Assembly (NCBI GenBank): GCA_964540065.1
Contig: CAZIKY010000004.1
Span: forward strand, 16,306-80,305
Length of the DNA stretch: 64,000 nt
Direction of reading: 5' to 3'
Source: Candidatus Woesearchaeota archaeon
GTDB lineage: Archaea > Nanobdellota > Nanobdellia > Pacearchaeales > JAHJTO01
A model generated the notes under the pieces. That model was not told the DNA's origin, did no database searches, and saw nothing but the letters and a program-made list of their open reading frames with translations. Shown piece by piece: positions 12,738 to 45,901 of this stretch (positions are counted from its first letter, which is position 1; each line of letters begins with the position of its first letter). A program made the position numbers and the translations under genes.

Positions 12738-13082
12738 TTATTCTGCAGCATTATTCAGCTGCTCGATTATTTTCTCCAAGCCGTCAGAAAGCTGGCTTGG
12801 GAAGTTTGGGAAGCTTTTTGCTTCCTTCAATAGTTCTGGAAGAACTTTTTTAGCCTCGCCATAAAAAGAGAATACACCATACTTGGAATATGTGGCCCCG
12901 CCGTATCCTCCATTGCTGTTTTCCCCAAGTTTTTGGTTATGGAAAAAGCTTAAGTGATAAGTGGAATCTACTGGATGATAGAAAGCAGTCAGTGTTCCAC
13001 CATCCATCCTTGCAGTATATGTGTCAAAGGTCCTTTTATTATTCTTAAGCCATATCCTTTCAGGTTTTTCGTGGTGGCCCAT
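12738..13082 (-). CDS. hypothetical protein (paralog of 12346-12690)
   Basis: 114-aa ORF, see previous entry. Confidence 0.4.
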   Translation of the reverse strand: MGHHEKPERIWLKNNKRTFDTYTARMDGGTLTAFYHPVDSTYHLSFFHNQKLGENSNGGYGGATYSKYGVFSFYGEAKKVLPELLKEAKSFPNFPSQLSDGLEKIIEQLNNAAE

Positions 13083-13154
13083 GCTTTTTTCCTCAATGAA
13101 AGGTTATTGGCAGGGTTTTTATCCTTTTGTAGAGTGGAATATATTATAATAAAA

Positions 13155-13565
13155 TTATAGAAGAACAAGCACAAAGATAGCTATTGTCACCGCTGCACTT
13201 GCGAGGCAATATTCGCATATTTTCTTTAAAACTCCAAGCTGGACGTAAACCAGGTAAACTGAGAAGATTGATGCTCCTCCGCTGGAAAGGACCTTAGCCC
13301 AGTAGACAAAAGCTTCCGGCCCAAAGTAGAAGCTTGGGTTTACCATAACAATTATTGAATAAATCGCTACGAAGCCGTAATAGATCAATCCCAGGATGGT
13401 ATTGTCAAATCCAAAGAGCTCTCCAAATTTGCTTGTGACAACTTCATTGCATTTGTTATCTCCAATCATGCAAACGAGGGGTTTCTTCTGCTTTTTCTTG
13501 AAAAGAATGTAGGCAGAGATAAGAATTCCTGCGATCGCAAGAATTAGAAGCCAAGGTTCATACAT
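13155..13565 (-). CDS. vitamin K epoxide reductase (VKOR) family membrane protein
   Basis: 136-aa polytopic membrane protein with a loop Cys pair (CMIGDNKC) and a C-terminal CEYC (CxxC) in a TM helix. Confidence 0.6.
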   Translation of the reverse strand: MYEPWLLILAIAGILISAYILFKKKQKKPLVCMIGDNKCNEVVTSKFGELFGFDNTILGLIYYGFVAIYSIIVMVNPSFYFGPEAFVYWAKVLSSGGASIFSVYLVYVQLGVLKKICEYCLASAAVTIAIFVLVLL

Positions 13566-13576
13566 TTTGTTTAAAT

Positions 13577-13951
13577 TTACCAGCCGAACAAAGCATCAAC
13601 TGAGAATGCTCCGCCGCCCAATGCTAAGAGGGCTAGAGCAGTTAAAAGCAAAGTAAGATCTAATTCCCATCCGGTGCCCTTATCTGTTGTGAAAGGAGCT
13701 TTCCACTGGAATTTCTTTTTGTAAGTTGCTCCAAGCATGATTACTGCAAGGCCTATTGCAGACAGCTGAGTCAAGAAACCGGAAAGCATAGATAATGCTC
13801 CCAGGGTTTCACATACTCCAAGGAATTTGAAGAATCCAGGCATTTTTTTCCAGTTCTTCAGTTTTGAAGAACCGTGAACAAAGAAAACTGAAGCTAATGC
13901 TAGCCTTAAAGCCAAAAGTCCCCAATTTTCCAATCCTAAATTAAGTAACAT
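13577..13951 (-). CDS. DoxX family membrane protein
   Basis: 124 aa, 4 TM. N-terminal LLALRLALASVFFVHGSSKL is typical of DoxX. Confidence 0.65.
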   Translation of the reverse strand: MLLNLGLENWGLLALRLALASVFFVHGSSKLKNWKKMPGFFKFLGVCETLGALSMLSGFLTQLSAIGLAVIMLGATYKKKFQWKAPFTTDKGTGWELDLTLLLTALALLALGGGAFSVDALFGW

Positions 13952-14016
13952 CTCTTCCCCTTTTACCTTTTTTATAGAGCAAAGAGATATTTAAACCTTG
14001 CTTCCCAAGTAGCTTT

Positions 14017-14379
14017 ATGAAAGCACTTTCATTGAAACAGCCTTTCGCAGAGCTTATCCTCCAAGGGAGGAAGAAGATTGAGCTGAGGAAGTGGAACACT
14101 AAATTCAGGGGAGAGTTTCTGATTCATTCTTCCAAAGTTCCCGATAAAAAAGCAATGAAAGAGTTTGGATTTTCTGATCTGCCTTGCGGATATATCCTGG
14201 GCAAGGCGAAACTTGTTGATGTTAAAAAGTATGGAAGTGAGGAAGAACATCAGAAAGACAGAAATCTTCATCTTGCTTCAAAGGCTTGGGGGAAATATGG
14301 TTTCGTTCTAGAAGAGGTCAAAAGATTAAAACCAGTCCTTGCAAAAGGAAAGCTCAACTTTTGGGAATTTGAGCTTTAG
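14017..14379 (+). CDS. ASCH domain protein (PUA-like fold)
   Basis: 120 aa with LSLKQPFAELILQGRKKIELRKW. Confidence 0.6.
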   Translation: MKALSLKQPFAELILQGRKKIELRKWNTKFRGEFLIHSSKVPDKKAMKEFGFSDLPCGYILGKAKLVDVKKYGSEEEHQKDRNLHLASKAWGKYGFVLEEVKRLKPVLAKGKLNFWEFEL

Positions 14380-14384
14380 ACTTC

Positions 14385-15032
14385 TTAGAGTTTCTTAGTA
14401 ACGCCCTGTTTGGGGCAGAATTTATTTACCGGACATTGGCTGCATGATGGAACTGGAGCTTTGCATATTGCTCTTCCATGCGCCTTAAGAAGCCAAGGAA
14501 GTTTTTTCCACTCAGACTTTGGAAGGATCTGCATGAGCTGCTTCTCAGATTTTTCGGCATTTTTGTCTGTGTCAGTCCATCCCAGTCTATAAGAAACCCT
14601 CAAGACATGAGTGTCAACAACTATTCCCTCTATGATGTCATAAGCATTCTGCATGATGACATTAGCCGTCTTCTTTCCTATTCCTGGGAGCTCGGTAAGC
14701 TCTTCTACGGTTCTCGGAATCTTTCCTTTGTGCTTTTCTGCCAGAATTTTACAAGCTTCCTTGATATGCTTGGCTTTGTTTCCCGCGAAAGTTATGTTCT
14801 TGATATACTCCAACAGATCATCAATTTCCGCTTTGGCATAATCTTCTGCAGTCTTGTATTTCTTGAACAAAGCAGGAGTTGAAGCATTAACGGCCTCGTC
14901 CCTTACTTGCGCAGAAAGAATTGCAGCCACAAGCAGCTCTAAGGGTGTGGAGTAATCTAGGTAATATTTGAGCTTGGGATATTTTGAATGGAGAATTTTT
15001 AGAACTTCTTTAATATTCTCCCCTTCTTTCAT
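14385..15032 (-). CDS. nth: endonuclease III (Nth), HhH-GPD DNA glycosylase with [4Fe-4S]
   Basis: 215 aa with the HhH-GPD motif (LTELPGIGKKTANVIM...D) and a C-terminal CxxxxxxCxxCxxxxxC cluster. Confidence 0.9.
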   Translation of the reverse strand: MKEGENIKEVLKILHSKYPKLKYYLDYSTPLELLVAAILSAQVRDEAVNASTPALFKKYKTAEDYAKAEIDDLLEYIKNITFAGNKAKHIKEACKILAEKHKGKIPRTVEELTELPGIGKKTANVIMQNAYDIIEGIVVDTHVLRVSYRLGWTDTDKNAEKSEKQLMQILPKSEWKKLPWLLKAHGRAICKAPVPSCSQCPVNKFCPKQGVTKKL

Positions 15033-21059: not shown

Positions 21060-22694
21060 TTAGTATTCAGGCATCCCGCCCATTCCGGGCATTCCCATTC
21101 CGCCTGCCGGTGCTGACGGGCTTTTTCCTGCCGCAACTACGTCATCTATCCTAAGAAGCATCATTGCAACTTCGCTTGCGCTTTTGATCGCCTGGGTTTT
21201 GATCTTTAAAGGTTCAACAACTCCGATTCTGAAGGTGTTTTCTATCTTTCCGTTGAAAAGGTTAAGGCCTGTTTCTCTTTCGCCATGGTCATGCCTTGCC
21301 TTGAGGGCCGTAAGCGTGTCTATCGGATCCATTCCGGCATTTTCTGCCAAGATCCTTGGGATGCTTTCAACTGCATCCGCGAACTGTTCTACTGCAAGCT
21401 GCTCTCTTCCCTGCGTGACAACTTCTTTTCTTAGTCTTCTTGCAAGCTCGATTTCAATTGCTCCGCCGCCCGCAACGACTTTTCCGTCTTGAAGTGTTGC
21501 TACAACATCTCCAAGGCTGTCTTTTATCGCGCGCTCGAATTCATCGATAACATGCTCTGTTCCGCCTCGGATTAGGATTGTCAATGCTTTTGGGTTCTTG
21601 CATTCTCTCACATAAGTCATTCCGGAATCTCCTTTTCTCACTTCTTCAACAGTCTTTGCATATCCCAAATCTTTGCTCTGGAGTTCCTGGATATTGCTTA
21701 CTATTCTTGCGCCGACTGCCTTTGCGAGCTTTTCCACATCGCTCTTGCTCACTCTTCTGAGCGCGTAGATTCTTTCTTTAGCTAAGTAATATTGCGCAAG
21801 ATCATCTATTCCTTTTTGGCAGATGAGGACATTTGCCCCGCTCTGCTTTATCTTGTTAACCATGTTCTTGAGAGTCCTTTCTTCCTGGTTTAAGAAAGCC
21901 TGGAACTGCTCTGGAGAGCTTATGCTTATCTTTGTGTCTGTCTCGGGAGACTTAATCTCCAAGGCAGCATCAACTATTGCGATTTTAGCATCTTTTACAA
22001 CCCAAGGCATGTCTGCGTGAACTCTTTCTTTGTCAAGAACGATTCCTGCAATGAGTTCCGTGTCTTCAACTCCTCCGCCTTTCTGTTTCTCTATCTTTAT
22101 ATCCCCCATATCTATTGAGACTTTTCCGTTATTGTCCTGCCTCATTATCTGCTTTACGGCCTTTAAGACAATGTTTGCAAATGAATCCTTTGCGGTTTCT
22201 GCAGACTTTCCAGTCATAGCAGTCATTGCAACATTTTTCAGGACCTGCTCATCTTTTATTGACACCGGCCTTGCGAGGCTATTTAGAATGCCTAAAGATC
22301 TTTCTGCAGCCAGCCTATAACCTCTTACAATTGCTGTAGGGTGTATTTTCTGATCCAGAAGCTTTTCTGCATTTTCTAAGAGCTTCCCTGCAAAGATGAC
22401 TGAAGTTGTTGTGCCATCTCCGACTTCGTCTTCCTGCGTCTTTGCGACTTCAACGAGCATCTTTGCTGCAGGGTGCTCTATTTCCATTTCCGATAGAATT
22501 GTTACGCCATCGTTTGTTATAGTTATGTCACCTATGCTATTCACCAGCATCTTGTCCATCCCTTTAGGCCCGAGAGTAGTTTTTACTGTGTCTGCCACCA
22601 TTCTAGCGGCTAGAATGTTATTTCTCTGTGCATCTCTTCCAATCATTCTTTGAATATTTTCAGGTAAAATGTAAATCGGTTGTTTTTCAGCCAT
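21060..22694 (-). CDS. thermosome subunit (group II chaperonin, Cpn60/TCP-1 family)
   Basis: 544 aa. N-terminus ([47 protein letters not shown]), the GDGTTT ATP-binding motif and the [12 protein letters not shown]-terminal tail are all present. Confidence 0.95.
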
Positions 22695-22712
22695 AGTCTT
22701 ATTCGTTTAGGG

Positions 22713-22724
22713 CTCTTTAAAAGT
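22713..22724 (-). promoter_or_regulatory. putative TATA-box-like element upstream of the thermosome gene
   Basis: Reverse complement CTTTTAAAGAG lies about 20 nt upstream of the thermosome ATG (leaderless-type spacing), preceded by an A-rich BRE-like stretch. Sequence resemblance only. Confidence 0.2.
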
Positions 22725-22832
22725 TTTATTGTAGTCATAAAATACTTATTCTTAGAATACTTTTTCTTTAATCTCCCATAAATTTCCCGGTAGTAACACA
22801 ATAAATAAAAAGGATTCTTGCTTACAAAAATC

Positions 22833-23417
22833 ATGAAAGTCGGAATCAAAGCCGGTGATGTGATGACAAGGACTTTTGTTTCGGTTTCTCCTGAGACTAG
22901 CGCGGCGCAATGCGCCAAAGAAATGATCCAGAAAAAAGTCGGATCCCTCATTGTCAAAGAAAACCAAAATCTTGTGGGGATTTTGACTGAAGGAGACATT
23001 ATCAGATCAATTGCTAAAAAGAAAGACCTTTCTAAAATAAAGGCTAAAGAGGTAATGACAAGAAAAGTTGTTACGATCAGCCCTAATGAGGACATATATC
23101 AGGCTCTTACAAAGATGAAGGGCAAGAAGATAAGGTGGCTGCCTGTTACTGTGCAGGGGAGAGTCATCGGAATGATTACGGTTAAGGATATCGTTGTCAT
23201 AGAGCCGGAGCTTTATGACATCGTTGCTGAGTTTACACCCATCAAAGAGGAGGAAAAGAAACTTAGGATGATAGAGATGAGAAAGAAGAAGAAAGCTCTT
23301 GAGATGGGAGAGGTCTGGGCCAAAGAAGGAGAGTGCCAGGAATGCGGGGCTTATGGGGTTTTATATAAGTTTGACGGGAGGCTTATCTGTGAAGACTGTA
23401 AAGATCTGCTTGAATAA
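22833..23417 (+). CDS. CBS-domain pair protein with C-terminal CxxC...CxxC zinc ribbon
   Basis: Two CBS motifs (VMTRTFVSVSPETS..., VMTRKVVTISPNED...) and a C-terminal EGECQECG...CEDC. Start taken at the ATG (MKVGIKAGDVMT) matching the paralog at 28773. The ORF track begins at an upstream TTG (22818). Confidence 0.8.
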   Translation: MKVGIKAGDVMTRTFVSVSPETSAAQCAKEMIQKKVGSLIVKENQNLVGILTEGDIIRSIAKKKDLSKIKAKEVMTRKVVTISPNEDIYQALTKMKGKKIRWLPVTVQGRVIGMITVKDIVVIEPELYDIVAEFTPIKEEEKKLRMIEMRKKKKALEMGEVWAKEGECQECGAYGVLYKFDGRLICEDCKDLLE

Positions 23418-23432
23418 TTTTCTGCTTAATAA

Positions 23433-24527
23433 TCAATAAAACCTTTTTCTTAGAATCTCTTCCTGCTCCTTTGCTGTTGCTAAAATATTTTTTATTTTTT
23501 TAACCTTCTTAGGGTTTCTTTTAGCTATGCCTGCTGCAACCCTGATATTTCCATATACTGCGCCCACATAAAATCCGCTTTCAATATCTAATTCTCGGGG
23601 TTTGTTCTCTATGGGGCTTTTCTTGCCGTACCAAAAATCGCCCAATCTTTCTCTAATGAAATATTCTCTTTTCTCTCTTAGTTCCTTGCCTAAAGAATCA
23701 AAAACTGTTTGAAATCCGGCTGTGCAACCCAATACTAAATTTAAAGAGGTATAATCTGTCGTTCCGAAGTCAAGCATAGAGGTTAAAGTAATATTACTCG
23801 GATAAACATCTGAGGGCATTATAACTGAATGATCTTTATTTGCAAGGAAAAAGTGGGCTAAAAGTGGAAAATTTTTTCTAAAACCCTCGAATTTTTCAAC
23901 GGGATAACCTCTTTTTCCAAGTATTTCAAAATAATTTTCTAAGCTTTCATGGTAATCCTTGCAGAGTTTTCGATTAAGCGTTACTTTTCCTCCAGAAGCC
24001 TCCAATAATCCTCTTTGGATATCTTCTTTCTTTTTGTTTGTTTCTAAAATTATTTCGGATAGCAGTTCAAGCGGGTGATTCAAGAGAATATAATGAGGGT
24101 ATTCCCCCAGAATACTTCTCATATTGACGCAATCTTCCAGTGTCGGAACATTTATTACCTTCATCAAAATTGCCTTTTCTTTGTCGAAGTTTTTTTCTTT
24201 AAAGGTAAGAATTTCCGGAACTGCTGGCTTTCCATCATGCATACAATTTTTTAAATTTTCCAGAAGAACCTTTTCTTTCACAAATTCTTCTAGAGAATTT
24301 GGCTTGCTGCTCAGGTCAATAGAATCATTGTAAACCTTTAGGATATAGAGGCGATCCTTAAGCATTTTTTCTTCATGAATGACCTCAACTCTTTGCCTGC
24401 AGAATACTTCTTTTACAGTAGACTTAACTCCTTCGTTTATGTATCGGGGCTTAAAAAGTTCTACCTCCTCTGGATTTAGCCTAAGGAAACCAGATACTAA
24501 TTTTTTGTAGAAAGATTCGCTTTTCAT
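23433..24527 (-). CDS. uncharacterized protein, member 1 of a three-paralog family (possible kinase-like fold)
   Basis: 364 aa. Shares the C-terminal motif FYVGAVYGNIRV and an internal LGCTAGF region with the ORFs at 25067 and 26356. No known family recognised. Confidence 0.5.
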   Translation of the reverse strand: MKSESFYKKLVSGFLRLNPEEVELFKPRYINEGVKSTVKEVFCRQRVEVIHEEKMLKDRLYILKVYNDSIDLSSKPNSLEEFVKEKVLLENLKNCMHDGKPAVPEILTFKEKNFDKEKAILMKVINVPTLEDCVNMRSILGEYPHYILLNHPLELLSEIILETNKKKEDIQRGLLEASGGKVTLNRKLCKDYHESLENYFEILGKRGYPVEKFEGFRKNFPLLAHFFLANKDHSVIMPSDVYPSNITLTSMLDFGTTDYTSLNLVLGCTAGFQTVFDSLGKELREKREYFIRERLGDFWYGKKSPIENKPRELDIESGFYVGAVYGNIRVAAGIAKRNPKKVKKIKNILATAKEQEEILRKRFY

Positions 24528-24536
24528 TTTGTCAAA

Positions 24537-25061
24537 TCAAGGCGCAAATTGGCTTGCCATTTTAAGAAGCTGATGTGCCTTTTTTATCGCCCTTTTTCTT
24601 TGCCGCCTTGAAGGCTCTTTTTGGTGCCCAAAGTAATCTTCAAGCATCTTTTTTTCATGACCATAGTTTCTTCCCCTAACTGCTCTCGAGGTAAGTTTGA
24701 TGGTGCATCCATTTGCTATCTGGTCTTTATCCAATCCAAGAGACTTCCCTATGCCATAAATGGGTTCGAGGAGTCGGTCGTCGTATCTTAAAGCATTTGT
24801 GATTAAATCTGCCAGCTCTCCCAGATAGCTTGCCAGGCCATTTCTGTGCCTTAGTTCAAATATGATTTCGCTTATTTCACCTTGCGGCTTGTCATTATAT
24901 CCATTAAATAAGCGCTTGTAAACATCTTCTCTTGTTCTTCCAAGATTTGGATCTCCCCTCTGCCTTTCATTAATCGCCCTGGCTAAATCGTGTCTTATAT
25001 ACTCCAGTTTGTCCCTAAGAGACATTTTAAGCACTTCATCTAGGGGTTTAAGCTCCGACAT
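24537..25061 (-). CDS. hypothetical protein (174 aa, basic C-terminus)
   Basis: ORF with 5- and 9-nt gaps to the flanking paralog genes, consistent with co-transcription; no recognised motif. Confidence 0.45.
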   Translation of the reverse strand: MSELKPLDEVLKMSLRDKLEYIRHDLARAINERQRGDPNLGRTREDVYKRLFNGYNDKPQGEISEIIFELRHRNGLASYLGELADLITNALRYDDRLLEPIYGIGKSLGLDKDQIANGCTIKLTSRAVRGRNYGHEKKMLEDYFGHQKEPSRRQRKRAIKKAHQLLKMASQFAP

Positions 25062-25066
25062 TTTTA

Positions 25067-26317
25067 TTAGGCTCCGAATAATTTTTCGATCCAGCTTTTC
25101 TGATGATAAATATCCCAGGTCTTTTTGCCCGAAATTATCTTGAGGGGCTCTTCTGCCTCATAATCTTTTTTGGAGAGGATTTCAAGCTGCTTGCTCACAG
25201 CCTTGATTACCCTCTCTGGCTCATCCTTGCCTAATTTATCTCCATATCTTGCGAGCAGATTGAAATTTGCACAGACTGCTCCGATGTAAAAGCTTTTTTC
25301 AAGGGCCTCGTAATCTATTTCTTTGAGGCCCATGTTAAACTGTGCTTCAAGGGTGTTTCTTCTAGTAGGATAAACTCTTGTTAAAGCCATCTCGATTTCC
25401 TTTTCAGGCTCGGCAAACTTGAGGAAAATGTCATAGAATCCGAAAAGATGCCCGAATGTAATCCCTCTTGATCCGATTGCGATGCCTTTATTGTCTAAGA
25501 TGTAAGATGCATTGTTATGCCAAGGCCATGCCTCCGCATGAATTACTGTTTGGGATTCTTTTTCTGCAAGATATTTTTTAGCCAAAGAATTCATTGCACC
25601 GATAAATGACTGCATTTCATTATCCGATAATCTTGAATTTTTGATGATATCCATCAGAGACTTAGTATAATCGCTTTTATACTGGCCTTTTCCCAGATCA
25701 TCATGCCTAAGTTCTTTAAGGCCGCCAAATTCTTTCCCCCATTGTGCAGCAATTTTCTCGAATCCATTGGTAAACTGCGGCACCCTGTCAAACAAAAGGG
25801 TGTAAAGATCTATTGTGGAATTTAATGTCTCGAAGCTTGGCTTTGGGATTTCGCTTATTCTTTCATCGAGAGGAGGCTTTGTGCTAAAGTAAGTAAGTGA
25901 AATTCCTTTCTCGGTTAGATTCTTATGATCGTGAGTTATGGGATATGAGAACAAGGGAATAGTCCTTCTTTGTTCTGGCATCTCGCTTGCGGTGTGCCAA
26001 TGATCTTTTATGTTCTTGCAGTCTGCCTCATGGCTTTTGTAGAGCACCAGATCCAAGGCAAGATCTTCAGAAATCTTTCTTGGGGAATTTGCTCTATATC
26101 CTCTCATGAATATCGGTTTTTCATCCCCTTCTCCTGCACGGTACCTGAATTTTATCTGGGTTCTTTCTCCTTCAGTATCCAGACGATATTTTCTTGTCAG
26201 GGGGTTTCCCCAAAGCAGTTCGGCGCTGAGAACATGTTTTCCCTGAGCGTCTGCTACTTCTCTCTCGAATTCTTCCTGGCTCATTCCGCGATCTTCAAAA
26301 ATATGTTTTGCAGGCAT
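25067..26317 (-). CDS. uncharacterized protein, member 2 of the three-paralog family
   Basis: 416 aa with HAEAWPWHNNASYILDNKGIAIGSRGITFGHLFGF and FYIGAVCANFNL motifs shared with 26356 and 23433. Confidence 0.5.
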   Translation of the reverse strand: MPAKHIFEDRGMSQEEFEREVADAQGKHVLSAELLWGNPLTRKYRLDTEGERTQIKFRYRAGEGDEKPIFMRGYRANSPRKISEDLALDLVLYKSHEADCKNIKDHWHTASEMPEQRRTIPLFSYPITHDHKNLTEKGISLTYFSTKPPLDERISEIPKPSFETLNSTIDLYTLLFDRVPQFTNGFEKIAAQWGKEFGGLKELRHDDLGKGQYKSDYTKSLMDIIKNSRLSDNEMQSFIGAMNSLAKKYLAEKESQTVIHAEAWPWHNNASYILDNKGIAIGSRGITFGHLFGFYDIFLKFAEPEKEIEMALTRVYPTRRNTLEAQFNMGLKEIDYEALEKSFYIGAVCANFNLLARYGDKLGKDEPERVIKAVSKQLEILSKKDYEAEEPLKIISGKKTWDIYHQKSWIEKLFGA

Positions 26318-26355
26318 TTTGTTTTGTTTTGAATTAATTTAAAATTGATTTAAAT

Positions 26356-27555
26356 TTAAATCGGCCAACCGAGCTCCCTGAATCCGCTTAGGAATTCTTT
26401 TGCAGAATTCTCTTTTTCAGAGAGTATTTCTAGGAGCTCTACAGAAGCTCTTCTGAGCCTTCGGACTTCTTCCCATTCCCCTTTGTTTTCAAATGGAGTT
26501 CCGTAGGTGAGTCTGAGATTTCCGTATATTGCTCCCACATAAACTGCATTCTCCATCCTTTCTTTGTCTATGTCCATTCTTAGAGCATAATGATGAGATA
26601 TCTTCTTGATGCTCTCAATTGTATTATATCTCTTATCGAATAGCTCTTCGAGGGACATTCCTTGGGTTTGAGGCATGTTTGCGGCATGAAGGAAAAGCTT
26701 GTTGAAAATGCTTTCATGGAACAGGCAACCAACTTGCATTCCTGGAGAACCAATCTTTAGATCGCCTGCATCAATAAGATAATCTCCTAAATGGTTCCAG
26801 GGATAGCCATCGTGCTGGATCAGGCGCATCAGATCTTCTGCGACAAGGTATTTCTCCGCAAGGTCCGCAAAGCTAGATTCTAGTTTTTCAGAAAGACGAT
26901 GGCTCATTCTTCTTTTGTGCCCTGCATAAATGAGCATGTTTGAAACATACCTCTGCAAATCCAACTGGTCTAATTTACCGTCTCCTTCATCAAATTTATC
27001 CCTTAGTTCTGCCAGCTTCCCATTTATAGATCTAACTTCTTTTGAATCTGGTTTGAATTTATTGAGGAAATAATCCTGATCTACTGCACGGATGAGGTCA
27101 TTGGGAGTAACAACTCTTCTCCCATCATATGTTTGATGAAGTGTTTCCTTTTGCGGCCTTTCGTTTACTAATATATAATGGCCTCCCTTTTTTACAAAGC
27201 CGACACATTGCGGAAATATTTTGCCGAGAACTTTTGGGGCGACAATTTCGTTCTGGGCATCGCTCGCATCATCCTCATGAATTATCTTTACGGCATACCC
27301 TATTATCCCTCCAGGGCCCTCGTAAGGGGTTTCAAAGCTGTAGGGTTTGACAAGCGAACGGGTTCCGCCCCTCCATCTGAACATGCTGTCATATATCTTT
27401 TCTACACCTTTGCTTTCTGAAGGATCTCTCTTTGAATCAAAGCCCTTTTCCCTTACGTCTTCTAGAATAATTCCTTTTATGTCTTTGCCATACTTCTCGA
27501 ACAAAGACCAGTCTAATTTTTTTACAGGTTTTAATTTAGGTTGTTTCTTTGCCAT
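26356..27555 (-). CDS. uncharacterized protein, member 3 of the three-paralog family
   Basis: 399 aa with HDGYPWNHLGDYLIDAGDLKIGSPGMQVGCLFHE and VYVGAIYGNLRL. The Dx4N...DxG pattern is loosely reminiscent of a protein-kinase-like catalytic core; this is speculative. Confidence 0.5.
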   Translation of the reverse strand: MAKKQPKLKPVKKLDWSLFEKYGKDIKGIILEDVREKGFDSKRDPSESKGVEKIYDSMFRWRGGTRSLVKPYSFETPYEGPGGIIGYAVKIIHEDDASDAQNEIVAPKVLGKIFPQCVGFVKKGGHYILVNERPQKETLHQTYDGRRVVTPNDLIRAVDQDYFLNKFKPDSKEVRSINGKLAELRDKFDEGDGKLDQLDLQRYVSNMLIYAGHKRRMSHRLSEKLESSFADLAEKYLVAEDLMRLIQHDGYPWNHLGDYLIDAGDLKIGSPGMQVGCLFHESIFNKLFLHAANMPQTQGMSLEELFDKRYNTIESIKKISHHYALRMDIDKERMENAVYVGAIYGNLRLTYGTPFENKGEWEEVRRLRRASVELLEILSEKENSAKEFLSGFRELGWPI

Positions 27556-27590
27556 GCTCTTTCTCCCAATTTGGGCTCTGGCTCAGCTAA

Positions 27591-28607
27591 CTAATATCCT
27601 ATGACCCTAGAGATATTATGTACATAGCCTGTGATGGATTTCAGCTTCTCTACCATGCTTTCAGTACCTCTTACAACCTCTTTTGATTTAGAAAAAAACA
27701 GTTTTTCGTAGAGATCCATCATGTTTTTCTTCTTGATTGCGATTCCTCTGGCAGTTTTAATGTCCCTGTTATAAAATGCGCTCATCATTGAGATGTATTC
27801 TTCATTTATTGCATTCAATGCCGTCATGAGCTCTTTTTGGTTTATTACTCCCCTGGAATGCAGGAGCTTAGACATTCTTTTAAGTTCGTCTCCGATATAT
27901 TCGAAGTGGAGAACTACCCATTGGGCGTCTGCGATGCTTCTTGGATCGAGCTTAAGTTTTTGGAGTGTTCTGGGATCCTCATTGCATTTCCTTACTATCT
28001 TCAGGCTGAGGAAGTAAAATTTGTTGATTGCCTTGTCGGCGTTGTAAATTTCATTCATAGTCCACTCTTTCAACTTCCCTGCAGTGATTCCTTCCCTAAG
28101 ATCGTCGAACATTGACCTGACAATGTTATCAAGCCTTCTGATGATTTTGTCCATGGAGATAGCTTCGAGGTCGAGGATGTCTCTTATCATCGCTTGATTA
28201 GCATCCTGCTCTGAAACTTCAAGCCCGATCTTGTCCTGCACCAGTTTTGAAATAAAATTCTGTTTCTTATTCAGGTCTTTTCCAGTGATTATTATTTCAT
28301 TGTAGTTGTTTATATATGCAGAATTGAACTCTCTTAGGAAAGAAGTGTCATCTTTTTCGTCGATCGTCAAGGAAATCGATTTGGTTTCCTTTGCCTTGTC
28401 TGATTTCGTCGAGAGAACAAGCTCATTATTCGCTGTTTCTTCAAGAAAAATAAGATCGCCTTTCTTAAGCTTGTTCTTATCTATCCAATTTTTCGGCAAT
28501 GCGATTATATAGGAAGAGTTTCCAAACCTTATGAGTTTCCTTTGTTCGGAATCAGACATTTTAAGATATGTTTTTTTACTATTTTCAAGGTATATACCTT
28601 TTGTCAC
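27591..28607 (-). CDS. AbrB/SpoVT-domain plus PhoU-domain regulator (archaeal phosphate-uptake-regulator type)
   Basis: The N-terminal swapped-hairpin domain (RKLIRFGNSSYIIALPKNWIDKNKLKKGDLIFLE) is followed by about 250 aa of helical PhoU-like repeats. First gene of the minus-strand operon. Confidence 0.7.
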   Translation of the reverse strand: MTKGIYLENSKKTYLKMSDSEQRKLIRFGNSSYIIALPKNWIDKNKLKKGDLIFLEETANNELVLSTKSDKAKETKSISLTIDEKDDTSFLREFNSAYINNYNEIIITGKDLNKKQNFISKLVQDKIGLEVSEQDANQAMIRDILDLEAISMDKIIRRLDNIVRSMFDDLREGITAGKLKEWTMNEIYNADKAINKFYFLSLKIVRKCNEDPRTLQKLKLDPRSIADAQWVVLHFEYIGDELKRMSKLLHSRGVINQKELMTALNAINEEYISMMSAFYNRDIKTARGIAIKKKNMMDLYEKLFFSKSKEVVRGTESMVEKLKSITGYVHNISRVIGY

Positions 28608-28772
28608 TAAAACTTTTAGGTATATATCTTATATATTCTATATTGACAACCCATTTATATACCTTTTCCTTTGCCATTCCAGGATAGAGAAAGAAATTGG
28701 GATTACTTGAAAAGGTGATCCAAAAATCCAAAAAAATCCAAGACAAAAAAAGATAAGGAGGCTAAAGGGAAA

Positions 28773-29342
28773 ATGAAAATCGGAATCAAAGTAGGAGATG
28801 TAATGACAAGACAGCTTATCTCGGTCAAGCCGAGCGAGGATGTCATAAACTGCGCTCGTGAGATGGCCGCGAAAGATGTTGGGCTTGTCATAGTTATGAG
28901 GGCTGGAAAGCTCTTGGGAGTTCTTACTGAGAGAGATGTTATATGGGCTTTGACAAAAAAAGGTGACTTGAGAAAAGTAAAAGCGAGTGATATAATGCTA
29001 AGAAAGATTACGACAATAAAGCCTTCAAGGGACATTTATGAGGCCCTTGTAAGGATGAAGAAACAAAACACAAGATGGCTGCCTATAACCGTAAACAAGA
29101 GGGTAATCGGGGTATTGACAATAAACGATATCCTGAGAATAGAGCCTGGCTTGTTTGAAATCGCTGCCGGAAACATGACTATTCGGGAAGCCGAAGAGAA
29201 AATGAGAAGGAAAAGCGATGCTCTCGAGGGGAAAACAAGATGGCTTGACGAAGGTGAATGCGAAAAATGCGAAACCTTTGGATTGCTTCATAACCTTGAC
29301 GGCAGCTTGATTTGCGAAGCCTGCAAAGACGAAGGCGAGTAA
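28773..29342 (+). CDS. CBS-domain pair protein with C-terminal zinc ribbon (paralog of 22833-23417)
   Basis: MKIGIKVGDVMTRQLISVKPSED... with two CBS motifs and EGECEKCE...CEAC. Clearly collinear with the first copy. Confidence 0.8.
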   Translation: MKIGIKVGDVMTRQLISVKPSEDVINCAREMAAKDVGLVIVMRAGKLLGVLTERDVIWALTKKGDLRKVKASDIMLRKITTIKPSRDIYEALVRMKKQNTRWLPITVNKRVIGVLTINDILRIEPGLFEIAAGNMTIREAEEKMRRKSDALEGKTRWLDEGECEKCETFGLLHNLDGSLICEACKDEGE

Positions 29343-29411
29343 ATCGGCGGTTAGAGATTATTGTTTTTATTTTAAAACAAAAAACAAAACAACGGAGGTA
29401 AAAAACAAAAA

Positions 29412-29549
29412 ATGAAAATGAGAAGAACACAGCAAATGCTGGAGATAAAGGAAGGAGAATGCCAGGAATGCGGCATGATCGGCCTTTTGATCACTCATGG
29501 GGGCACAGAAGTGTGCGAGCCGTGTGAGCAAGAGCTTTCTCTAGGGTAA
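29412..29549 (+). CDS. orphan mini zinc-ribbon ORF (45 aa) resembling the C-terminal tail of the CBS paralogs
   Basis: Translates to MKMRRTQQMLEIKEGECQECGMIGLLITHGGTEVCEPCEQELSLG. Compare the CBS-protein tails MIEMRKKKKALEMGEVWAKEGECQECGAYG...CEDC and MRRKSDALEGKTRWLDEGECEKCETFG...CEAC. Below the ORF-track size cutoff. Confidence 0.35.
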   Translation: MKMRRTQQMLEIKEGECQECGMIGLLITHGGTEVCEPCEQELSLG

Positions 29550-30159: not shown

Positions 30160-30660
30160 ATGTCTGAAAAAAGCAAAGTAGCTGAAGAAAAGATCAAGTA
30201 TGACGGGATTTTTGATTTTAAGGAGACTTACAGCTTCATCTATACCATCCTTTCCGACTGGGAATACAGCATTGCTGAAAAAGAGTATTCTGAAAAAGCC
30301 AAGGGAGATTCCAAGGAAATAGAGATCAAATGGGAAGCGAGCAGGAAAGTTACCGATTATTTCAAGTATCAGATGAAGGTCGAATGGAGAATCCTGGGGA
30401 TGAAGGATGTTGAAGTCGTGAAAGACGGGAAGAAGTCCAAGAAAAACAGCGGAACTCTTGAGATAAAATTTGTTTCAGTATTGATTAAGGATTATCAGGA
30501 TAAATGGAGCGACACTCCTTTCCTTAAATTTTTAAGAGGAGTATATGACAAGTTTGTTATCTCTGATGCTATTGGTGAGCAGGAAGGAAAATTAGAGGGC
30601 GAGATGAGTGAAGCAGTCAATCAGACCAAGGCTTTCTTGGTATTAGAGTCAAGAAAGTGA
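30160..30660 (+). CDS. hypothetical protein
   Basis: 166-aa ORF, Lys/Glu-rich. Confidence 0.4.
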   Translation: MSEKSKVAEEKIKYDGIFDFKETYSFIYTILSDWEYSIAEKEYSEKAKGDSKEIEIKWEASRKVTDYFKYQMKVEWRILGMKDVEVVKDGKKSKKNSGTLEIKFVSVLIKDYQDKWSDTPFLKFLRGVYDKFVISDAIGEQEGKLEGEMSEAVNQTKAFLVLESRK

Positions 30661-30769
30661 TTGCCGACGGTGCAAAAGAATAAAACGTTAGGTTTAAATA
30701 TATCGTTAGGCGGATATTAAATAAATCAGGATAAATCGATTAAAATTGATAAAAGGGGTTAAATTGAGG

Positions 30770-32182
30770 ATGAAAAGTTTGAAGTTTTTTGCTTTGGCAA
30801 TCTTGCCTGTGCTATTATTATCTATTCCATCTGTTCTTGCTGAAACCGGATTAAGCGTTACTCCTATCAAAAGTTTTGTTTTCAAAGAATTGGAAGCTCC
30901 TGCAACTTATGAGCTTACAGTCAAAAACGGCGAAAATTTTGAAGATAATTTTTACATAGATACCCTATTGGATATAGAAATTTCCCCTAAAAGTTTAGGA
31001 TCAGTTGCTGCCGGCGGAACAAAAAGATTTACTATTTCTGTCAATCCAAGCCAAGACTTGAAGAGCAAGCAGGCTGGAAAGAATTTTGCATTTGAATACT
31101 TTGTAAGGGGTGATAGATCTAAGCTGGCCAAAGACAGCATTACTGTCGGAATATTCTCTTTCCCAGATGCCTTGGAAATAACTTTCCCCCCTTCAATAGA
31201 TCCTGAGCAGAAAGAAGTAACTGTAGGATTGAGATTCAGGCATGACATAACATTAAGCGCAAATGTTAAGGCAACTTCTGAGCTTCTTTCAGATACTTTC
31301 TCTGTTAAAGATCTCAGCATAGAGAAGCAGGAAGCGGTTTTGACACTCAATGATCTGAAGGGCAAGAATGCCGGAGTCTATAAAATAACTTTTGAGTTTG
31401 AGATAGATGGCGAGAAAGTAATTGCAGAGAAAGACATGGTTCTAAGCCCAGTAGTTACAGTAAAAACGGATGAAGAGACTACTGGAGGAATACTTTCAAG
31501 CGAGACAAAAGTCACTAAGACAAATAATGGGAATAGCGCTACGGATGTATCTATCCTGCTTAATCGATCGGTAGTTTCAAGCCTTTTCACCACATTCAGT
31601 GATGCTCCTAAAACAAGGAAAGATGGAAGATTTTATCTTTATGAATGGGAAAAGGAGCTTAATCCTGGAGAAAGCTACACTGTAAGCCTTAAGACCAATT
31701 ATTACGTTCCGTTCTTGGTATTTTTATTGTTGCTTCTTGCTCTTGTAGTTTTCAAGATAGTTACAAAGTCTCCTGTAGAGATAACTAAGAAAGTAGCAAG
31801 AGTAAGGACAAAATCCGGGGCTTTTGCAGCCAAGATAATAATTTCCGCCAAGAACACAGGTAAGCCAGTGAGCAATGTCAAGATAATTGACAGACTTCCA
31901 GCTTTCACAGAAATACTTTCAAATAAGTTCAGCGTGCTTACACCTTCTGAAATAAAGAAGAGGTCTGTTGTCTGGAGCATCCCTCAGATGTCCACAGGCG
32001 AGGAAATAATGTTCTCATATATCGTCTACAGCAAAGTAAACATCTTCGGAAGGCTTGAAGTGCCTCCTGCAGTTGTGACTTTCATAGACAGCAAGGACAA
32101 TTTCCTTGAATCCCAGAGCGATAAGATTTACATAATCTCTGAGGAAGAAAAGAAAGAAGAGGATCTTAATCCTCCTTTGTAA
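30770..32182 (+). CDS. secreted, C-terminally membrane-anchored cell-surface protein (unknown)
   Basis: N-terminal signal peptide (MKSLKFFALAILPVLLLSIPSVLA) and a TM helix near residue 320 (VPFLVFLLLLLALVVF). The ATG is at 30770; the ORF track uses an upstream TTG at 30746. Confidence 0.5.
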   Translation: MKSLKFFALAILPVLLLSIPSVLAETGLSVTPIKSFVFKELEAPATYELTVKNGENFEDNFYIDTLLDIEISPKSLGSVAAGGTKRFTISVNPSQDLKSKQAGKNFAFEYFVRGDRSKLAKDSITVGIFSFPDALEITFPPSIDPEQKEVTVGLRFRHDITLSANVKATSELLSDTFSVKDLSIEKQEAVLTLNDLKGKNAGVYKITFEFEIDGEKVIAEKDMVLSPVVTVKTDEETTGGILSSETKVTKTNNGNSATDVSILLNRSVVSSLFTTFSDAPKTRKDGRFYLYEWEKELNPGESYTVSLKTNYYVPFLVFLLLLLALVVFKIVTKSPVEITKKVARVRTKSGAFAAKIIISAKNTGKPVSNVKIIDRLPAFTEILSNKFSVLTPSEIKKRSVVWSIPQMSTGEEIMFSYIVYSKVNIFGRLEVPPAVVTFIDSKDNFLESQSDKIYIISEEEKKEEDLNPPL

Positions 32183-32280: not shown

Positions 32281-32413
32281 CCCTGTGTAGCTCAATGGTG
32301 GAGCTCTCGGCTGTAGCTCAAGCGTTAAGTTGACGTTCCTTTCAGGACGAGAATGATACTTAATCAGCCGAATGGAACCCGAGTGGTTGGCGGTTCGAGT
32401 CCGCCCGCAGGGA
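32281..32413 (+). tRNA. intron-containing tRNA, likely tRNA-Tyr (anticodon GTA) with ~61-nt intron at canonical 37/38
   Basis: Acceptor stem CCCTGTG/CGCAGGG with discriminator A. D-arm GCTC-AATGGTG-GAGC. Anticodon stem 5' half CTCGG plus loop CTGTAG are interrupted by about 61 nt (32317-32377) before the 3' half CCGAG. T-arm GGCGG-TTCGAGT-CCGCC. Confidence 0.7.
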
Positions 32414-41973: not shown

Positions 41974-42065
41974 TGATTAAAGAATATGCCTTTTAATTTA
42001 AACATTCCCTTTTTCCCTACAGCATTAACAAGATTTAAAAATCTACTTTTTCTTTAAAAGTTTGT

Positions 42066-42137
42066 GCCTCAATGGTGTAACGGCTAGCACGCAACCCTGT
42101 CACGGTTGTAGTCCGGGTTCGAAACCCGGTTGGGGCG
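42066..42137 (+). tRNA. tRNA-Asp (anticodon GTC)
   Basis: GCCTCAATGGTGTAACGGCTAGCACGCAACCCTGTCACGGTTGTAGTCCGGGTTCGAAACCCGGTTGGGGCG. Acceptor GCCTCAA/TTGGGGC, anticodon stem CAACC/GGTTG with loop CTGTCAC, T-arm CCGGG-TTCGAAA-CCCGG. Confidence 0.85.
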
Positions 42138-42138
42138 T
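42127..42138 (+). repeat. 12-nt tRNA-Asp 3'-end sequence (CGGTTGGGGCGT), first copy of a direct repeat
   Basis: The identical 12-mer recurs at 42899-42910, about 770 bp downstream. A possible att-site duplication. Confidence 0.4.
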
Positions 42139-42246
42139 AGTACATTTTTGCATTTTTTATGGGCGTCGAAAGTATGTCATAAACAGTCCAAGATGTTTAT
42201 ATTAAACATAGGTTATATTGAGAAATATAAATTTAAAAAAGAATAT

Positions 42247-42657
42247 TTATTCTGCTATGGATATTCCCCTAACCTTACTTTTTAGATGAGGAAATTCTCT
42301 TAATAGTCTTCTTATACTATTATGAGTCTTAGACAATCCCGGATTAATCTTTAAGGCATCAGTGTAAGATTTTAATGCGTCTTCTGGATAACCAAATCCT
42401 CCTAATATCTCCCCCATATTATTATGAGCATAAGACAATCTCGGATTAATCTTTAAGGCATCAGTGTAAGATTTTAATGCACCTTCAAAATCGCCTTCCT
42501 TATGCAAATCATATCCCTGCGAAAAAATATCTATAGCGTAGTTTAGTGATATCTGTTCTAAAGGAGAGAGTTCAATATTTTTTGGATAACCAAATGACTC
42601 AGCTGTTTCTCTGCTAATAGAATTTCTTTTATTCCCCGCATTATATATTAGTTTCAT
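42247..42657 (-). CDS. TPR repeat protein
   Basis: 136 aa with two nearly identical 34-aa TPR units (ALKSYTDALKINPRLS / ALKSYTDALKINPGLS). Confidence 0.6.
   Translation of the reverse strand: MKLIYNAGNKRNSISRETAESFGYPKNIELSPLEQISLNYAIDIFSQGYDLHKEGDFEGALKSYTDALKINPRLSYAHNNMGEILGGFGYPEDALKSYTDALKINPGLSKTHNSIRRLLREFPHLKSKVRGISIAE
42319..42480. repeat. nucleotide-level tandem duplication (two ~60-nt copies, period 102 nt) inside the TPR gene
   Basis: Copy 1 is at 42319-42378 and copy 2 at 42421-42480. They are about 93% identical and correspond to one duplicated 34-aa TPR unit. Confidence 0.6.
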
Positions 42658-42898
42658 ATAGTATAGATAATCTCCACCTATTTAAATCTTTCTATTTGTT
42701 ACTACTCTCAAGAGATTATAAAACTAGCATGAAAGACTAATTAATTTTATTATCGACAAAAATAAAAAACAATTCTATTTCACCAGAAAATTTTATCTTC
42801 TCATTCTCGACAATTCTTAAAAACTCTGAGAGTATGTAATAATTATGACGTAATAAGAGCGTTTGACGCCCTTTGATTATGCAAAAAGCTCTTCCCTT

Positions 42899-42910
42899 CG
42901 GTTGGGGCGT
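42899..42910 (+). repeat. second copy of 12-nt tRNA-Asp 3'-end direct repeat, within a hairpin-capable element
   Basis: CGGTTGGGGCGT is embedded in GACGCCC...GGGGCGT. That element can form a 6-bp stem, ACGCCC pairing with GGGCGT. Confidence 0.4.
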
Positions 42911-43101
42911 TTCTGGAACTCGAAATTAAATCCGATGCCCATTTATTAAAATGAATCTTTCGGATTTACAAAAAATAAATTTTGATGATTTCCATAAATT
43001 TACTCTTTCTTCTTCCAAAGCAATTTTTATTACTTCTTCATTCTTGGGAAGTTATAGTTTGGTGACCTTCAAAGAACCAGCTATAAAAACTTTTTTAAGT
43101 T

Positions 43102-45796: not shown

Positions 45797-45901
45797 TAAA
45801 ATACCCCCAAGTTTTATGCTCTTTGGAAATTAGTGAAGTATATAATATTTTCGTAAAATGAATAAGAAAAATTTAAATAAATACTCTCCCTTAAAAATTT
45901 C

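Follow-up and report, generated by a model that had tools for sequence, protein, structure and literature searches.

The locus described here lies in a 64,000 nt stretch of archaeal DNA (the window), and we consider it a reasonable, if not assured, reading that it represents an autoregulated, lineage-specific chromosomal operon of DPANN archaea (Nanobdellota/‘Nanoarchaeota’) encoding a kinase/pseudokinase pair that probably acts on a small-molecule substrate.

Organisation of the locus

Five genes on the minus strand follow one another with gaps of 35, 38, 5 and 9 nt. The first gene of the operon encodes an AbrB/SpoVT-PhoU transcription regulator (27591–28559) and is followed by P3 (26356–27555; 399 aa), a subfamily-A kinase-fold protein predicted to be catalytically intact, P2 (25067–26317; 416 aa), a subfamily-B paralogue predicted to be a degenerate, pseudokinase-like partner, the gene for a 174-aa protein (24537–25061), an optional operon member, and P1 (23433–24527; 364 aa), a subfamily-C kinase-fold paralogue predicted to be intact. 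On the plus strand this unit is flanked by two genes encoding CBS-pair proteins with a C-terminal Zn-ribbon, CBS1 (22833–23417), convergent with the end of the operon, and CBS2 (28773–29342; ribbon of the form CxxC...CxxC), divergent from it, with CBS2 followed on the same strand by a gene for a free-standing Zn-ribbon mini-protein of 45 aa homologous to the CBS tails (29412–29549). The original prediction of eight genes, three of them large paralogues, with a CBS pair, a free Zn-ribbon and a minus-strand unit tightly packed at gaps of 5–38 nt behind an AbrB-PhoU regulator, thus described real features throughout. A thermosome gene on the minus strand (21060–22694) is a conserved neighbour, with no membership of the unit implied.

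A kinase fold for P1, P2 and P3

The three large proteins are related to one another at 29% (P2/P3, E 1e-18), 24% (P1/P3, E 3e-7) and 25% identity (P1/P2, E 3e-6) by BLASTP. They had been predicted to form an unrecognised family, and for sequence libraries this holds: none of the three matched Pfam or NCBIfam at E up to 1, 52 family members gave zero Pfam matches at E up to 0.01, profile searches of the PDB returned nothing, and no alignment of the family profile with APH(3′)-IIIa was returned by hhalign. It does not hold for the fold. Structure prediction worked only once an exhaustive profile search had enlarged the alignment from 4 sequences to 52 (pLDDT rising from 55 to 90), and the resulting AF2 model (pLDDT 90.4, pTM 0.91) has the bilobal fold of a kinase, including a helical C-terminal subdomain for substrate binding, its top Foldseek matches being APH(3′) enzymes. 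Judged from this model, P1, P2 and P3 are very divergent members of the APH/choline-kinase fold and, as part of the overall explanation favoured here, the family is likely to be a branch of the APH/choline-kinase-like phosphotransferase superfamily that had escaped classification.

Across the 52 sequences the family motifs comprise G-T-[RK]-S, K90 (43/52), E103 (36/52), D249 (40/52), N/H254 (46/52) and D262 (46/52), in the order and with the predicted strands and helices expected for a kinase. Since there is no sequence-level link to a characterised kinase, the equivalence of these motifs rests on their order and spacing and on the secondary structure of the model, with no residue-level superposition. 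P3 contains the Gly-loop, K90, E103, QHDGYPWN and IDAGD, and P1 contains G-V-K-S, the Lys, the Glu, D-x4-N (PSDVYPSN) and D-F-G (LDFG), so that both have the kinase motif set. P2 does not: its Gly-loop column reads Y-R-L-D, the β3 Lys is R, the αC Glu is D and the catalytic Asp is E (AEAWPWH), with H254, D262, N346 and Q374 retained. In the related loci described below, the Gly-loop serine motif is present, together with the catalytic Asp, N/H254 and D262, in all first-position and single kinase genes, and all of them except that of locus L005 (Q at the Lys column) keep K90 and E103. The Gly-loop is gone from every second-position kinase gene, and the catalytic Asp is replaced in four of the eight (E in the window, G in L004, E in L011 and K in L019).

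From these motif states and the model, P3 and P1 look catalytically intact and P2 looks like a dead partner. P3 would be an ATP-dependent kinase and P1 a second intact kinase, added in this genome only, and P2, which always follows the P3 orthologues, and whose nucleotide-binding lobe is degenerate and here also without the catalytic Asp, is most likely the non-catalytic partner in a kinase/pseudokinase heterodimer. Some B-type proteins still carry D249/H254/D262 and could be active using a different donor. The chemistry may be atypical, since the metal-ligand Asn is replaced by His in most family members and the Lys by Gln in two A-type members.

The C-lobe residues N346 and Q374 are kept by all family members, which probably reflects a common substrate or interface. 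Small-molecule and peptide kinases provide the closest folds, and the most likely substrate is therefore a small metabolite, to be modified or salvaged by an organism with a reduced genome; the fold matches extend from kinases of aminoglycosides through those of choline, sugars and amino alcohols to those of peptides and so do not single out one compound. A protein-kinase signalling pair, in which P3 and P1 would phosphorylate AbrB-PhoU, the CBS-Zn-ribbon proteins or the thermosome and P2 would act as a scaffold, is in our estimation unlikely. We regard as very unlikely a detoxification or resistance module whose kinases would inactivate an antibiotic or toxin of a host-associated niche, in the style of APH, Mph, corramycin or amicoumacin kinases. 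Such a role would account for the fast sequence evolution of the kinases, but the chromosomal position of the locus is fixed in all sampled relatives with no signs of mobility, an obligatory degenerate partner and a dedicated regulator are atypical of resistance kinases, and the invariance of the C-lobe residues across subfamilies points to one conserved ligand rather than to shifting targets.

Subfamilies and conserved gene order

P3, P2 and P1 belong to distinct old subfamilies (A, B and C respectively), each with orthologues elsewhere, rather than being the rapidly diverged tandem duplicates first proposed. Orthologues of P2 occupy the second position in six loci (L001, L004, L005, L010, L011 and L013). 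P1 clusters with P0031, P0035, P0045, P0046, P0052, P0056 and P0061, and in L019 and L017 the kinase pair begins with a C-type gene. P1 is an extra copy with no counterpart at its position in relatives; kinase copy number is one or two per locus, and three in this genome only. The family has 74 representatives among 1.84 billion proteins and was found in one genome among 185,579 species, and the description ‘lineage-specific’ is therefore apt.

The comparison covered some 10 related loci from metagenomes or SAGs, all from one narrow lineage. The order shared by these ∼10 loci is a CBS-Zn-ribbon gene, then, divergent from it, AbrB-PhoU, an intact kinase, a degenerate kinase and, optionally, the 174-aa protein, and finally a convergent CBS-Zn-ribbon gene. 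This layout is kept even with the kinases at just 23–38% identity, and the second-position paralogue is degenerate in all loci compared. Start and stop codons frequently overlap within the unit, with gene overlaps of 4–11 nt in L005, L011 and L019, where that between AbrB-PhoU and the first kinase gene is 11 nt in L005 and 4 nt in L011. The linkage of the kinases to CBS and PhoU genes, whose absence from relatives had been named beforehand as a refuting observation, is conserved: AbrB-PhoU, kinase(s) and CBS recur together in seven loci (L001, L004, L005, L011, L012, L019 and L020) and span subfamilies A/B, C and D. The thermosome gene (64–78% identical) immediately follows the unit in L001, L004, L005, L011, L013, L014 and L020, and L019 has retained the unit and lost this neighbour.

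Genes at 30160–30660 and 30746–32182 are, like the thermosome gene, also syntenic in several loci, so that the conserved linkage may partly be plain inheritance. That the kinases, regulator and CBS genes are nothing more than unrelated neighbours in a slowly rearranging block would be consistent with this wider synteny and with the origin of every locus from one narrow lineage, but carries little probability, given that overlaps of 4–11 nt join regulator and kinases and that AbrB-PhoU, kinase and CBS persist in the different surroundings of L019 and across the subfamilies. The unit has the same chromosomal position in every relative sampled, which makes its designation as an accessory system doubtful.

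The AbrB-PhoU regulator and its putative operator

The regulator has an N-terminal AbrB/MazE-type domain (Pfam MazE_antitoxin, residues 27–71, E 4.4e-7), which also weakly matches ‘doc_partner’, followed by PhoU in two stretches (Pfam PhoU, E 1.5e-7), both Pfam matches being above the gathering score; a PDB search by sequence matched no solved structure. The open reading frame as listed extends to GTG 28607, and the start is most likely ATG 28559 (322 aa) because the orthologues begin MT.S.PEQRKLIRFG. Orthologues immediately precede the kinase genes in L001, L004, L005, L011, L012, L019 and L020 and are much better conserved than the kinases (29–71% vs 23–38% identity). AbrB-PhoU regulators are numerous in archaea, with seven PhoU-family factors counted in P. 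furiosus (PMC6316755), and TK2245, a SpoVT/AbrB-PhoU protein of T. kodakarensis, was among the proteins recovered in association with the chromosome (PMC7325993). The idea of a phosphate-responsive module derives solely from the name of the PhoU domain.

A candidate divergent promoter/operator block (28587–28672, not assigned to a strand) contains three copies of the 13-nt palindrome AGGTATATACCTT (repeat family D1) at 28588–28600, 28618–28630 and 28653–28665, spaced by 30 and 35 nt and accompanied by an AGTGACA box. Allowing up to two mismatches, the palindrome is matched six times in the window vs 1.13 expected, with five of the six matches at this block. The sequence RGTATATAYC occurs upstream of AbrB-PhoU in L001, L004, L005, L012, L019 and L020, and an intergenic alignment of six loci has 41 invariant columns. 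In all, seven loci have conserved palindromic boxes ahead of the regulator gene, an indirect indication of sequence-specific DNA binding. The palindrome array marks a conserved putative promoter/operator region. AbrB-PhoU probably binds the three palindromes, in which case it would control its own operon and perhaps CBS2 too.

A conflict system (toxin-antitoxin or defence/counter-defence), with an AbrB/MazE-like antitoxin, kinases as toxins or effectors and escalating duplication, would fit the MazE_antitoxin and ‘doc_partner’ matches and the fast evolution of the kinases but is highly improbable, as PADLOC gave 0 matches for six proteins and PHROGs nothing significant, the AbrB domain forms a single protein with two PhoU stretches, an architecture known from ordinary archaeal regulators (PMC7325993, PMC6316755), the kinases are far less well conserved than the regulator, the three kinase copies stem from old subfamilies with no recent duplicates, and all relatives have one copy of the locus, in a syntenic position. 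With these negative searches, old subfamilies and only one or two copies per locus elsewhere, the escalating duplication of a counter-defence locus that had been suggested finds no support. Membership of a known anti-phage defence or counter-defence system was rejected on the same PADLOC and PHROGs results and the syntenic, single-copy locus, and a HipBA-like kinase toxin-antitoxin pair on the placement of AbrB in a 322-aa PhoU fusion, the better conservation of this fusion than of the kinases and the fixed chromosomal context of the locus.

The CBS-Zn-ribbon proteins and the 174-aa protein

CBS1 and CBS2 share 50% identity (BLASTP, E 6e-69) and have a TA0289-like architecture, with two Pfam CBS stretches each (E 3.5e-31 and 1.6e-25 respectively) and a C-x2-C...C-x2-C motif that is invariant across five aligned tails. 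In a PDB search CBS1 matched entry 3ghd, ‘CBS domain protein fused to a Zn-ribbon-like domain’, at E 7.7e-7 over the CBS part only. Orthologues are found at the same positions in L001, L004, L005, L010, L011, L013, L016 and L019 for CBS1 (58–74% identical) and in L001, L004, L005 and L012 for CBS2 (59–74%). The 45-aa mini-protein aligns with both CBS tails (BLASTP, 42–43% identity, E 1e-6 to 9e-8) and retains all four Cys; a separate Zn-ribbon ORF also follows CBS2 in L001 (8082–8216) and L004 (6075–6206). The flanking proteins are candidates for sensors of adenine nucleotides or metal that serve the unit, and any phosphate or energy signal acting on it is an inference.

The 174-aa protein had no Pfam or NCBIfam match, and just five homologues were found in 5.8 billion proteins. 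In L004, L005 and L013 the second kinase gene is followed by a homologue (39–43% identity), and in L010 a similar ORF (29%) precedes the first kinase gene; L001 and L011 have none. Within the family E62, E65, D85, K122 and R126 are invariant and position 82 is always acidic (E or D). The Pfam PRA-PH profile scored 20.6 bits in one of the five members (cut-off 21.3), over a match spanning the conserved acidic and basic motifs, and NCBIfam HisE matched weakly (13.5 bits). PDB searches with the family gave no match, and hhalign against HisE and MazG sequences was not significant. From the motifs, the protein is possibly an all-alpha NTP-pyrophosphohydrolase-like (MazG/HisE-like) protein and may serve the unit as an optional helper.

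Implications

DPANN genomes are tiny and rich in proteins without assignable function. At least 74 sequence clusters, and three proteins here, can now be assigned to the APH/choline-kinase fold, with active and degenerate copies predicted. The hypothesis also specifies the catalytic residues, a probable heterodimer and candidates for the operator boxes and their regulator. More tentatively, and with considerable doubt, the A/B pair (and C with its partner) might form an obligate kinase-pseudokinase heterodimer of a DPANN-restricted APH/choline-kinase branch that carries out a symbiosis-specific phosphorylation (e.g. host-metabolite capture) under an AbrB-PhoU repressor and two CBS-Zn-ribbon energy or metal sensors, a sensor-regulator-enzyme circuit without described counterpart. 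Should the substrate turn out to be a metabolite obtained from the host, the operon would illustrate how these symbionts capture or modify what they cannot make.

Comparison with known systems

In common with MazG and HisE (PRA-PH), the 174-aa family has E-x-x-E, then [ED]-x-A-D, in which the Asp is invariant, and later K-x3-R, but its match falls below the curated cut-off and involves one member of five. The T. acidophilum TA0289 family combines a CBS pair with a Zn-ribbon-like domain (Proudfoot et al., 2008, J Mol Biol 375:301, as cited in PMC7521041), and CBS1 and CBS2 likewise have two CBS domains and then a C-terminal CxxC...CxxC ribbon. They differ in that two paralogues flank a kinase operon, with a ribbon-only gene after them, an arrangement kept in relatives. 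The regulator shares its AbrB-type N-terminus and PhoU with TK2245 and the P. furiosus PhoU-family factors, but here it is gene 1 of an operon, ahead of kinase-fold genes, and is associated with a conserved array of 13-nt palindromes. The P1–P3 family has the same protein-kinase-like fold as the APH/choline-kinase/MTR-kinase/type-II homoserine-kinase group (Pfam APH PF01636 and relatives), the closest solved structure being 3csv, a putative aminoglycoside phosphotransferase of Silicibacter. In contrast to that group, it escapes every HMM and profile tried, has the catalytic loop Q-H-D-G-Y-P-W-[HN], with His in the majority at the Asn position, possesses its own invariant C-lobe motifs Y-x-G-A-x-Y-x-N and Q-x-x-I-L, and is organised as an intact and a degenerate copy paired under an AbrB-PhoU regulator.

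Gene organisation and flanking CBS proteins

All eight genes named in the original prediction were recovered in the ORF listing. Five lie on the minus strand, separated by intergenic gaps of 35, 38, 5 and 9 nt: the AbrB-PhoU regulator (27591-28607 as listed, with a GTG start), the large paralogs P3 (399 aa; 26356-27555) and P2 (416 aa; 25067-26317), a 174-aa gene (24537-25061) and the third large paralog, P1 (364 aa; 23433-24527). On the plus strand are the CBS-pair genes with C-terminal Zn-ribbon (ZR) tails, CBS1-ZR (22833-23417) and CBS2-ZR (28773-29342), and a 45-aa Zn-ribbon ORF (29412-29549), with a thermosome gene (21060-22694, minus strand) adjoining the unit, the presence of which marks the organism as an archaeon. 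Read from the GTG at 28607, the regulator would have 16 N-terminal residues that are missing in every orthologue, so that the ATG at 28559 (MSDSEQRKLIRFG...) is the more likely start. Pfam confirmed the CBS pairs as well as the combination of a MazE-type AbrB domain with PhoU in the regulator.

CBS1 and CBS2 are 50% identical, and the 45-aa ORF aligns to both of their tails with all four Cys retained. This homology ruled out a RiPP/lanthipeptide cluster with the ORF as precursor, and no RiPP-enzyme domains (lyase, cyclase or other known) were detected in the scanned neighbouring genes. CBS pairs usually bind adenosine-containing ligands. A CBS pair joined to a Zn-ribbon is a described class, represented by TA0289 of T. 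acidophilum (Proudfoot et al. 2008, as cited in PMC7521041) and by PDB 3ghd, which was matched in our PDB search, and CBS1 and CBS2 belong to it by their architecture. That two paralogues consistently bracket the operon suggests that the CBS proteins may be functionally tied to it.

A kinase-fold family recognised by predicted structure

The proposed paralogy of the three large genes proved to be real but distant (P2/P3, 29% identity, E 1e-18; P1/P3, 24%, E 3e-7; P1/P2, 25%, E 3e-6), and, as had been anticipated, P1, P2, P3 and the 174-aa protein had no Pfam or NCBIfam match. For the kinases, nothing above noise came from searching the PDB with sequences or profiles. A word-indexed search of 5.8 billion proteins returned a single relative, a 381-aa protein from the 'Nanoarchaeota archaeon' SAG AM-311-I10 (taxon now Nanobdellota at NCBI), and when 1.84 billion cluster representatives were searched exhaustively with a HMMER profile, 74 proteins were found at E <=1e-3, 51 of them at <=1e-10, all of 340-485 aa. 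None of the 52 aligned family members had a meaningful Pfam match, and among 185,579 species-representative genomes the family was found in that of the SAG alone.

The view of these paralogs as a family without a known fold did not survive structure prediction. The quality of the P3 AlphaFold model hinged on alignment depth, with a pLDDT of 54.6 from four sequences and of 90.4 (pTM 0.91) from the 52-sequence alignment. Foldseek searches with the latter ranked APH(3') enzymes first (E 3e-7), with modest TM-scores of 0.35-0.56, and a viral fold search (BFVD) gave generic kinase matches only. Family conservation (P3 numbering) is consistent with a kinase, comprising a G-T-[RK]-S loop, K90 in a predicted strand (84-93), E103 in the next helix (94-110), D249 after a predicted strand (244-247), N or H at 254, and D262-x-G. 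The spacing of these motifs parallels that of APH(3')-IIIa, whose landmarks are GMSPAKVY...K44...E60...D190-x4-N195...D208. This kinship is invisible at the sequence level: aligned by hhalign to APH(3')-IIIa, whose sequence was verified against 1J7I, the 52-sequence profile gave no match. Peculiar to the family are the invariant C-lobe motifs Y-x-G-A-x-Y-x-N346 and Q374-x-x-I-L.

Intact and degenerate kinase motifs

In alignment clustering P3, P2 and P1 fell into separate subfamilies, A, B and C respectively, each with members elsewhere, alongside a D group and outliers. Since these subfamilies are old, the tandem copies are not recent local duplicates, and the idea of rapidly diverged paralogs produced by a recent, escalating duplication was discarded.

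P3 and P1 have the complete catalytic motif set, and in P2 the corresponding columns read Y-R-L-D (Gly-loop), R (Lys), D (Glu) and E (catalytic Asp). Across the loci, D249, N/H254, D262 and the serine motif of the loop are kept in every kinase gene that is single or in first position, and so are K90 and E103 except in L005, where Q occupies the Lys column. The Gly-loop was absent from every second-position gene, and the catalytic Asp was lost in four of eight of these, variously to E (window and L011), G (L004) and K (L019). In L008 the partner of the A-type gene, of which 125 residues are sequenced, shares 60% identity over that length with the family member P0032, whose two Asp positions carry E and S. 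No copy, intact or degenerate, departs from N346 or Q374. We infer that this split is the pattern expected of an active kinase and a non-catalytic paralogous partner. As a separate observation, the A-type proteins P0007 and P0012 (L005 1746-2810) are first-position and otherwise intact with Gln at the beta3 Lys column, reflecting either a shifted alignment there or atypical nucleotide binding in the family.

Conservation of the neighbourhood

Related metagenomic and SAG loci were obtained by exact-protein look-ups and one metagenome scan, and annotated by BLAST and HMM. The predicted linkage of these genes to AbrB-PhoU and CBS genes recurred across them, in the order CBS2-type (minus), AbrB-PhoU, kinase 1, kinase 2 and optionally the 174-aa homologue (all plus), CBS1-type (minus) and thermosome (plus). 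This order was found in L001/L003, L004, L005 and L011, and partially in L012, L013 and L016. L010 carries the A-B-CBS1 part with a U174-like ORF ahead of it; L019 combines AbrB-PhoU with a C-type kinase, its degenerate partner and CBS1, with other genes and no thermosome beyond; L020 has CBS, AbrB-PhoU, one D-type kinase, a 141-aa gene and thermosome; and L014 has CBS, one D-type kinase and thermosome without the regulator. Gene overlaps of 4-11 nt in L005, L011 and L019 support co-transcription. P1 at the operon end is unique to the window genome, and the free Zn-ribbon ORF after CBS2 is also found in L001 and L004. Identity to the window products was 64-78% for thermosome, 46-74% for CBS, 29-71% for AbrB-PhoU and 29-43% for the 174-aa protein, but 23-38% for the kinases, which therefore evolve much faster than their neighbours.

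Two further plus-strand genes without a Pfam match are syntenic in relatives: a 166-aa gene (30160-30660) accompanying the unit in L001, L004, L011 and L014 (46-55% identity), and a 478-aa gene (30746-32182) in L001, L004 and L011 (30-50% identity), the latter probably encoding a surface protein because of its hydrophobic N-terminal and near-C-terminal segments. In the SAG relative L001 a gene for a secreted protein of 580 aa with many N-x-S/T sequons (13063-14805, minus strand) is inserted between CBS1 and thermosome; it is missing from the window. Elsewhere in the window, an Rfam tRNA call (32281-32413, plus strand; 133 nt, 50.8 bits), of a length that allows a ~60-nt intron, had no ARAGORN call, and a low-GC stretch (42001-46000; 0.33-0.35 versus ~0.40 elsewhere) adjoining a tRNA-Asp (42065-42138) could be an island or insertion.

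The 174-aa protein

The 174-aa gene is missing in L001 and L011. Only five homologues were found, none with a Pfam domain above cut-off, and these share an invariant E62-x-x-E65, an equally invariant D85 within an [ED]-x-A-D motif, and K122-x3-R126. All-alpha NTP pyrophosphohydrolases of the MazG/HisE type have the signature E-x-x-E...E-x-x-D, which these motifs resemble. In one homologue a Pfam PRA-PH match of 20.6 bits (cut-off 21.3) spans exactly those motifs, and NCBIfam HisE was also matched weakly. Neither searches of the PDB nor hhalign comparisons with HisE and MazG sequences gave anything significant. A MazG/HisE-like NTP pyrophosphohydrolase is a lead that we would put at about even odds.

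Candidate operator

A block conserved in a six-locus alignment (28589-28672 in the window; 41 invariant columns) lies between AbrB-PhoU and CBS2, and contains three copies of the palindrome AGGTATATACCTT (28588-28600, 28618-28630 and 28653-28665; spacing 30 and 35 nt) and an AGTGACA box. Allowing <=2 mismatches, this 13-mer had six matches in the 64-kb window versus 1.13 expected, five of the six in the intergenic block, and its core RGTATATAYC occurs upstream of AbrB-PhoU in L001, L004, L005, L012, L019 and L020. The proximal palindrome, 29-41 nt upstream of the likely regulator ATG, may coincide at least in part with a TATA box, or itself serve as one, for a transcript that is nearly leaderless. 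A scan for bacterial sigma-70 promoters and terminators was uninformative, the organism being an archaeon. The phosphate-responsive module suggested in the original prediction is a possibility on which the present results bear neither way; archaea have numerous regulators with PhoU domains (PMC6316755). Because AbrB-type proteins act on DNA as multimers occupying several sites (10.1101/2024.08.12.607668) and one SpoVT/AbrB-PhoU protein of T. kodakarensis appears in a list of chromosome-associated proteins (PMC7325993), the simplest reading would be autoregulation by the encoded AbrB-PhoU protein. Compared with other loci, the window has a ~57-nt extra insertion between the block and CBS2 (within 28673-28772) that includes a tandem AAAAATCCAA x2 (28722-28741).

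L005 (5346-5355) and L013 (2764-2773) also have an operator-like pair (GTATTTATAyCTTT...AGAGTATATACC) ahead of their thermosome gene, and a lone kinase gene immediately precedes thermosome on the same strand in L014 and L020. No such box was found in the window's thermosome upstream region (22695-22832). In some lineages, these observations hint, regulation of the unit and of the chaperonin could be connected.

Interpretation and comparison with known systems

On balance, we think that this is probably an autoregulated, lineage-specific operon in which a P3-type APH/ChoK-fold kinase would work with a degenerate paralogous partner, the window genome adding a second kinase with intact motifs (P1), the substrate probably being a small molecule and the encoded AbrB-PhoU protein controlling its own operon. 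The kinases could also form a protein-kinase signalling pair, possibly thermosome-linked, which we consider unlikely. A detoxification kinase is a more doubtful proposal for genes in a recurrent unit with a dedicated regulator. Synteny without function would account for the shared gene order and is slightly less credible again. A conflict or toxin-antitoxin system is very improbable and was rejected together with a defence module; PHROGs and PADLOC gave nothing usable for the paralogs or the 174-aa protein.

In full-text literature on DPANN and aminoglycoside phosphotransferases we found only an unrelated review. Neither the fold nor any of the domain families taken singly is new. What appears to be undescribed is the kinase family itself, which is recognised by no HMM library, the consistent pairing of its intact and degenerate members, and the operonic union, within a narrow DPANN lineage, of these kinases with AbrB-PhoU, an array of palindromes and CBS-Zn-ribbon genes on either side; together they make a sound and testable step forward in annotating microbial dark matter.
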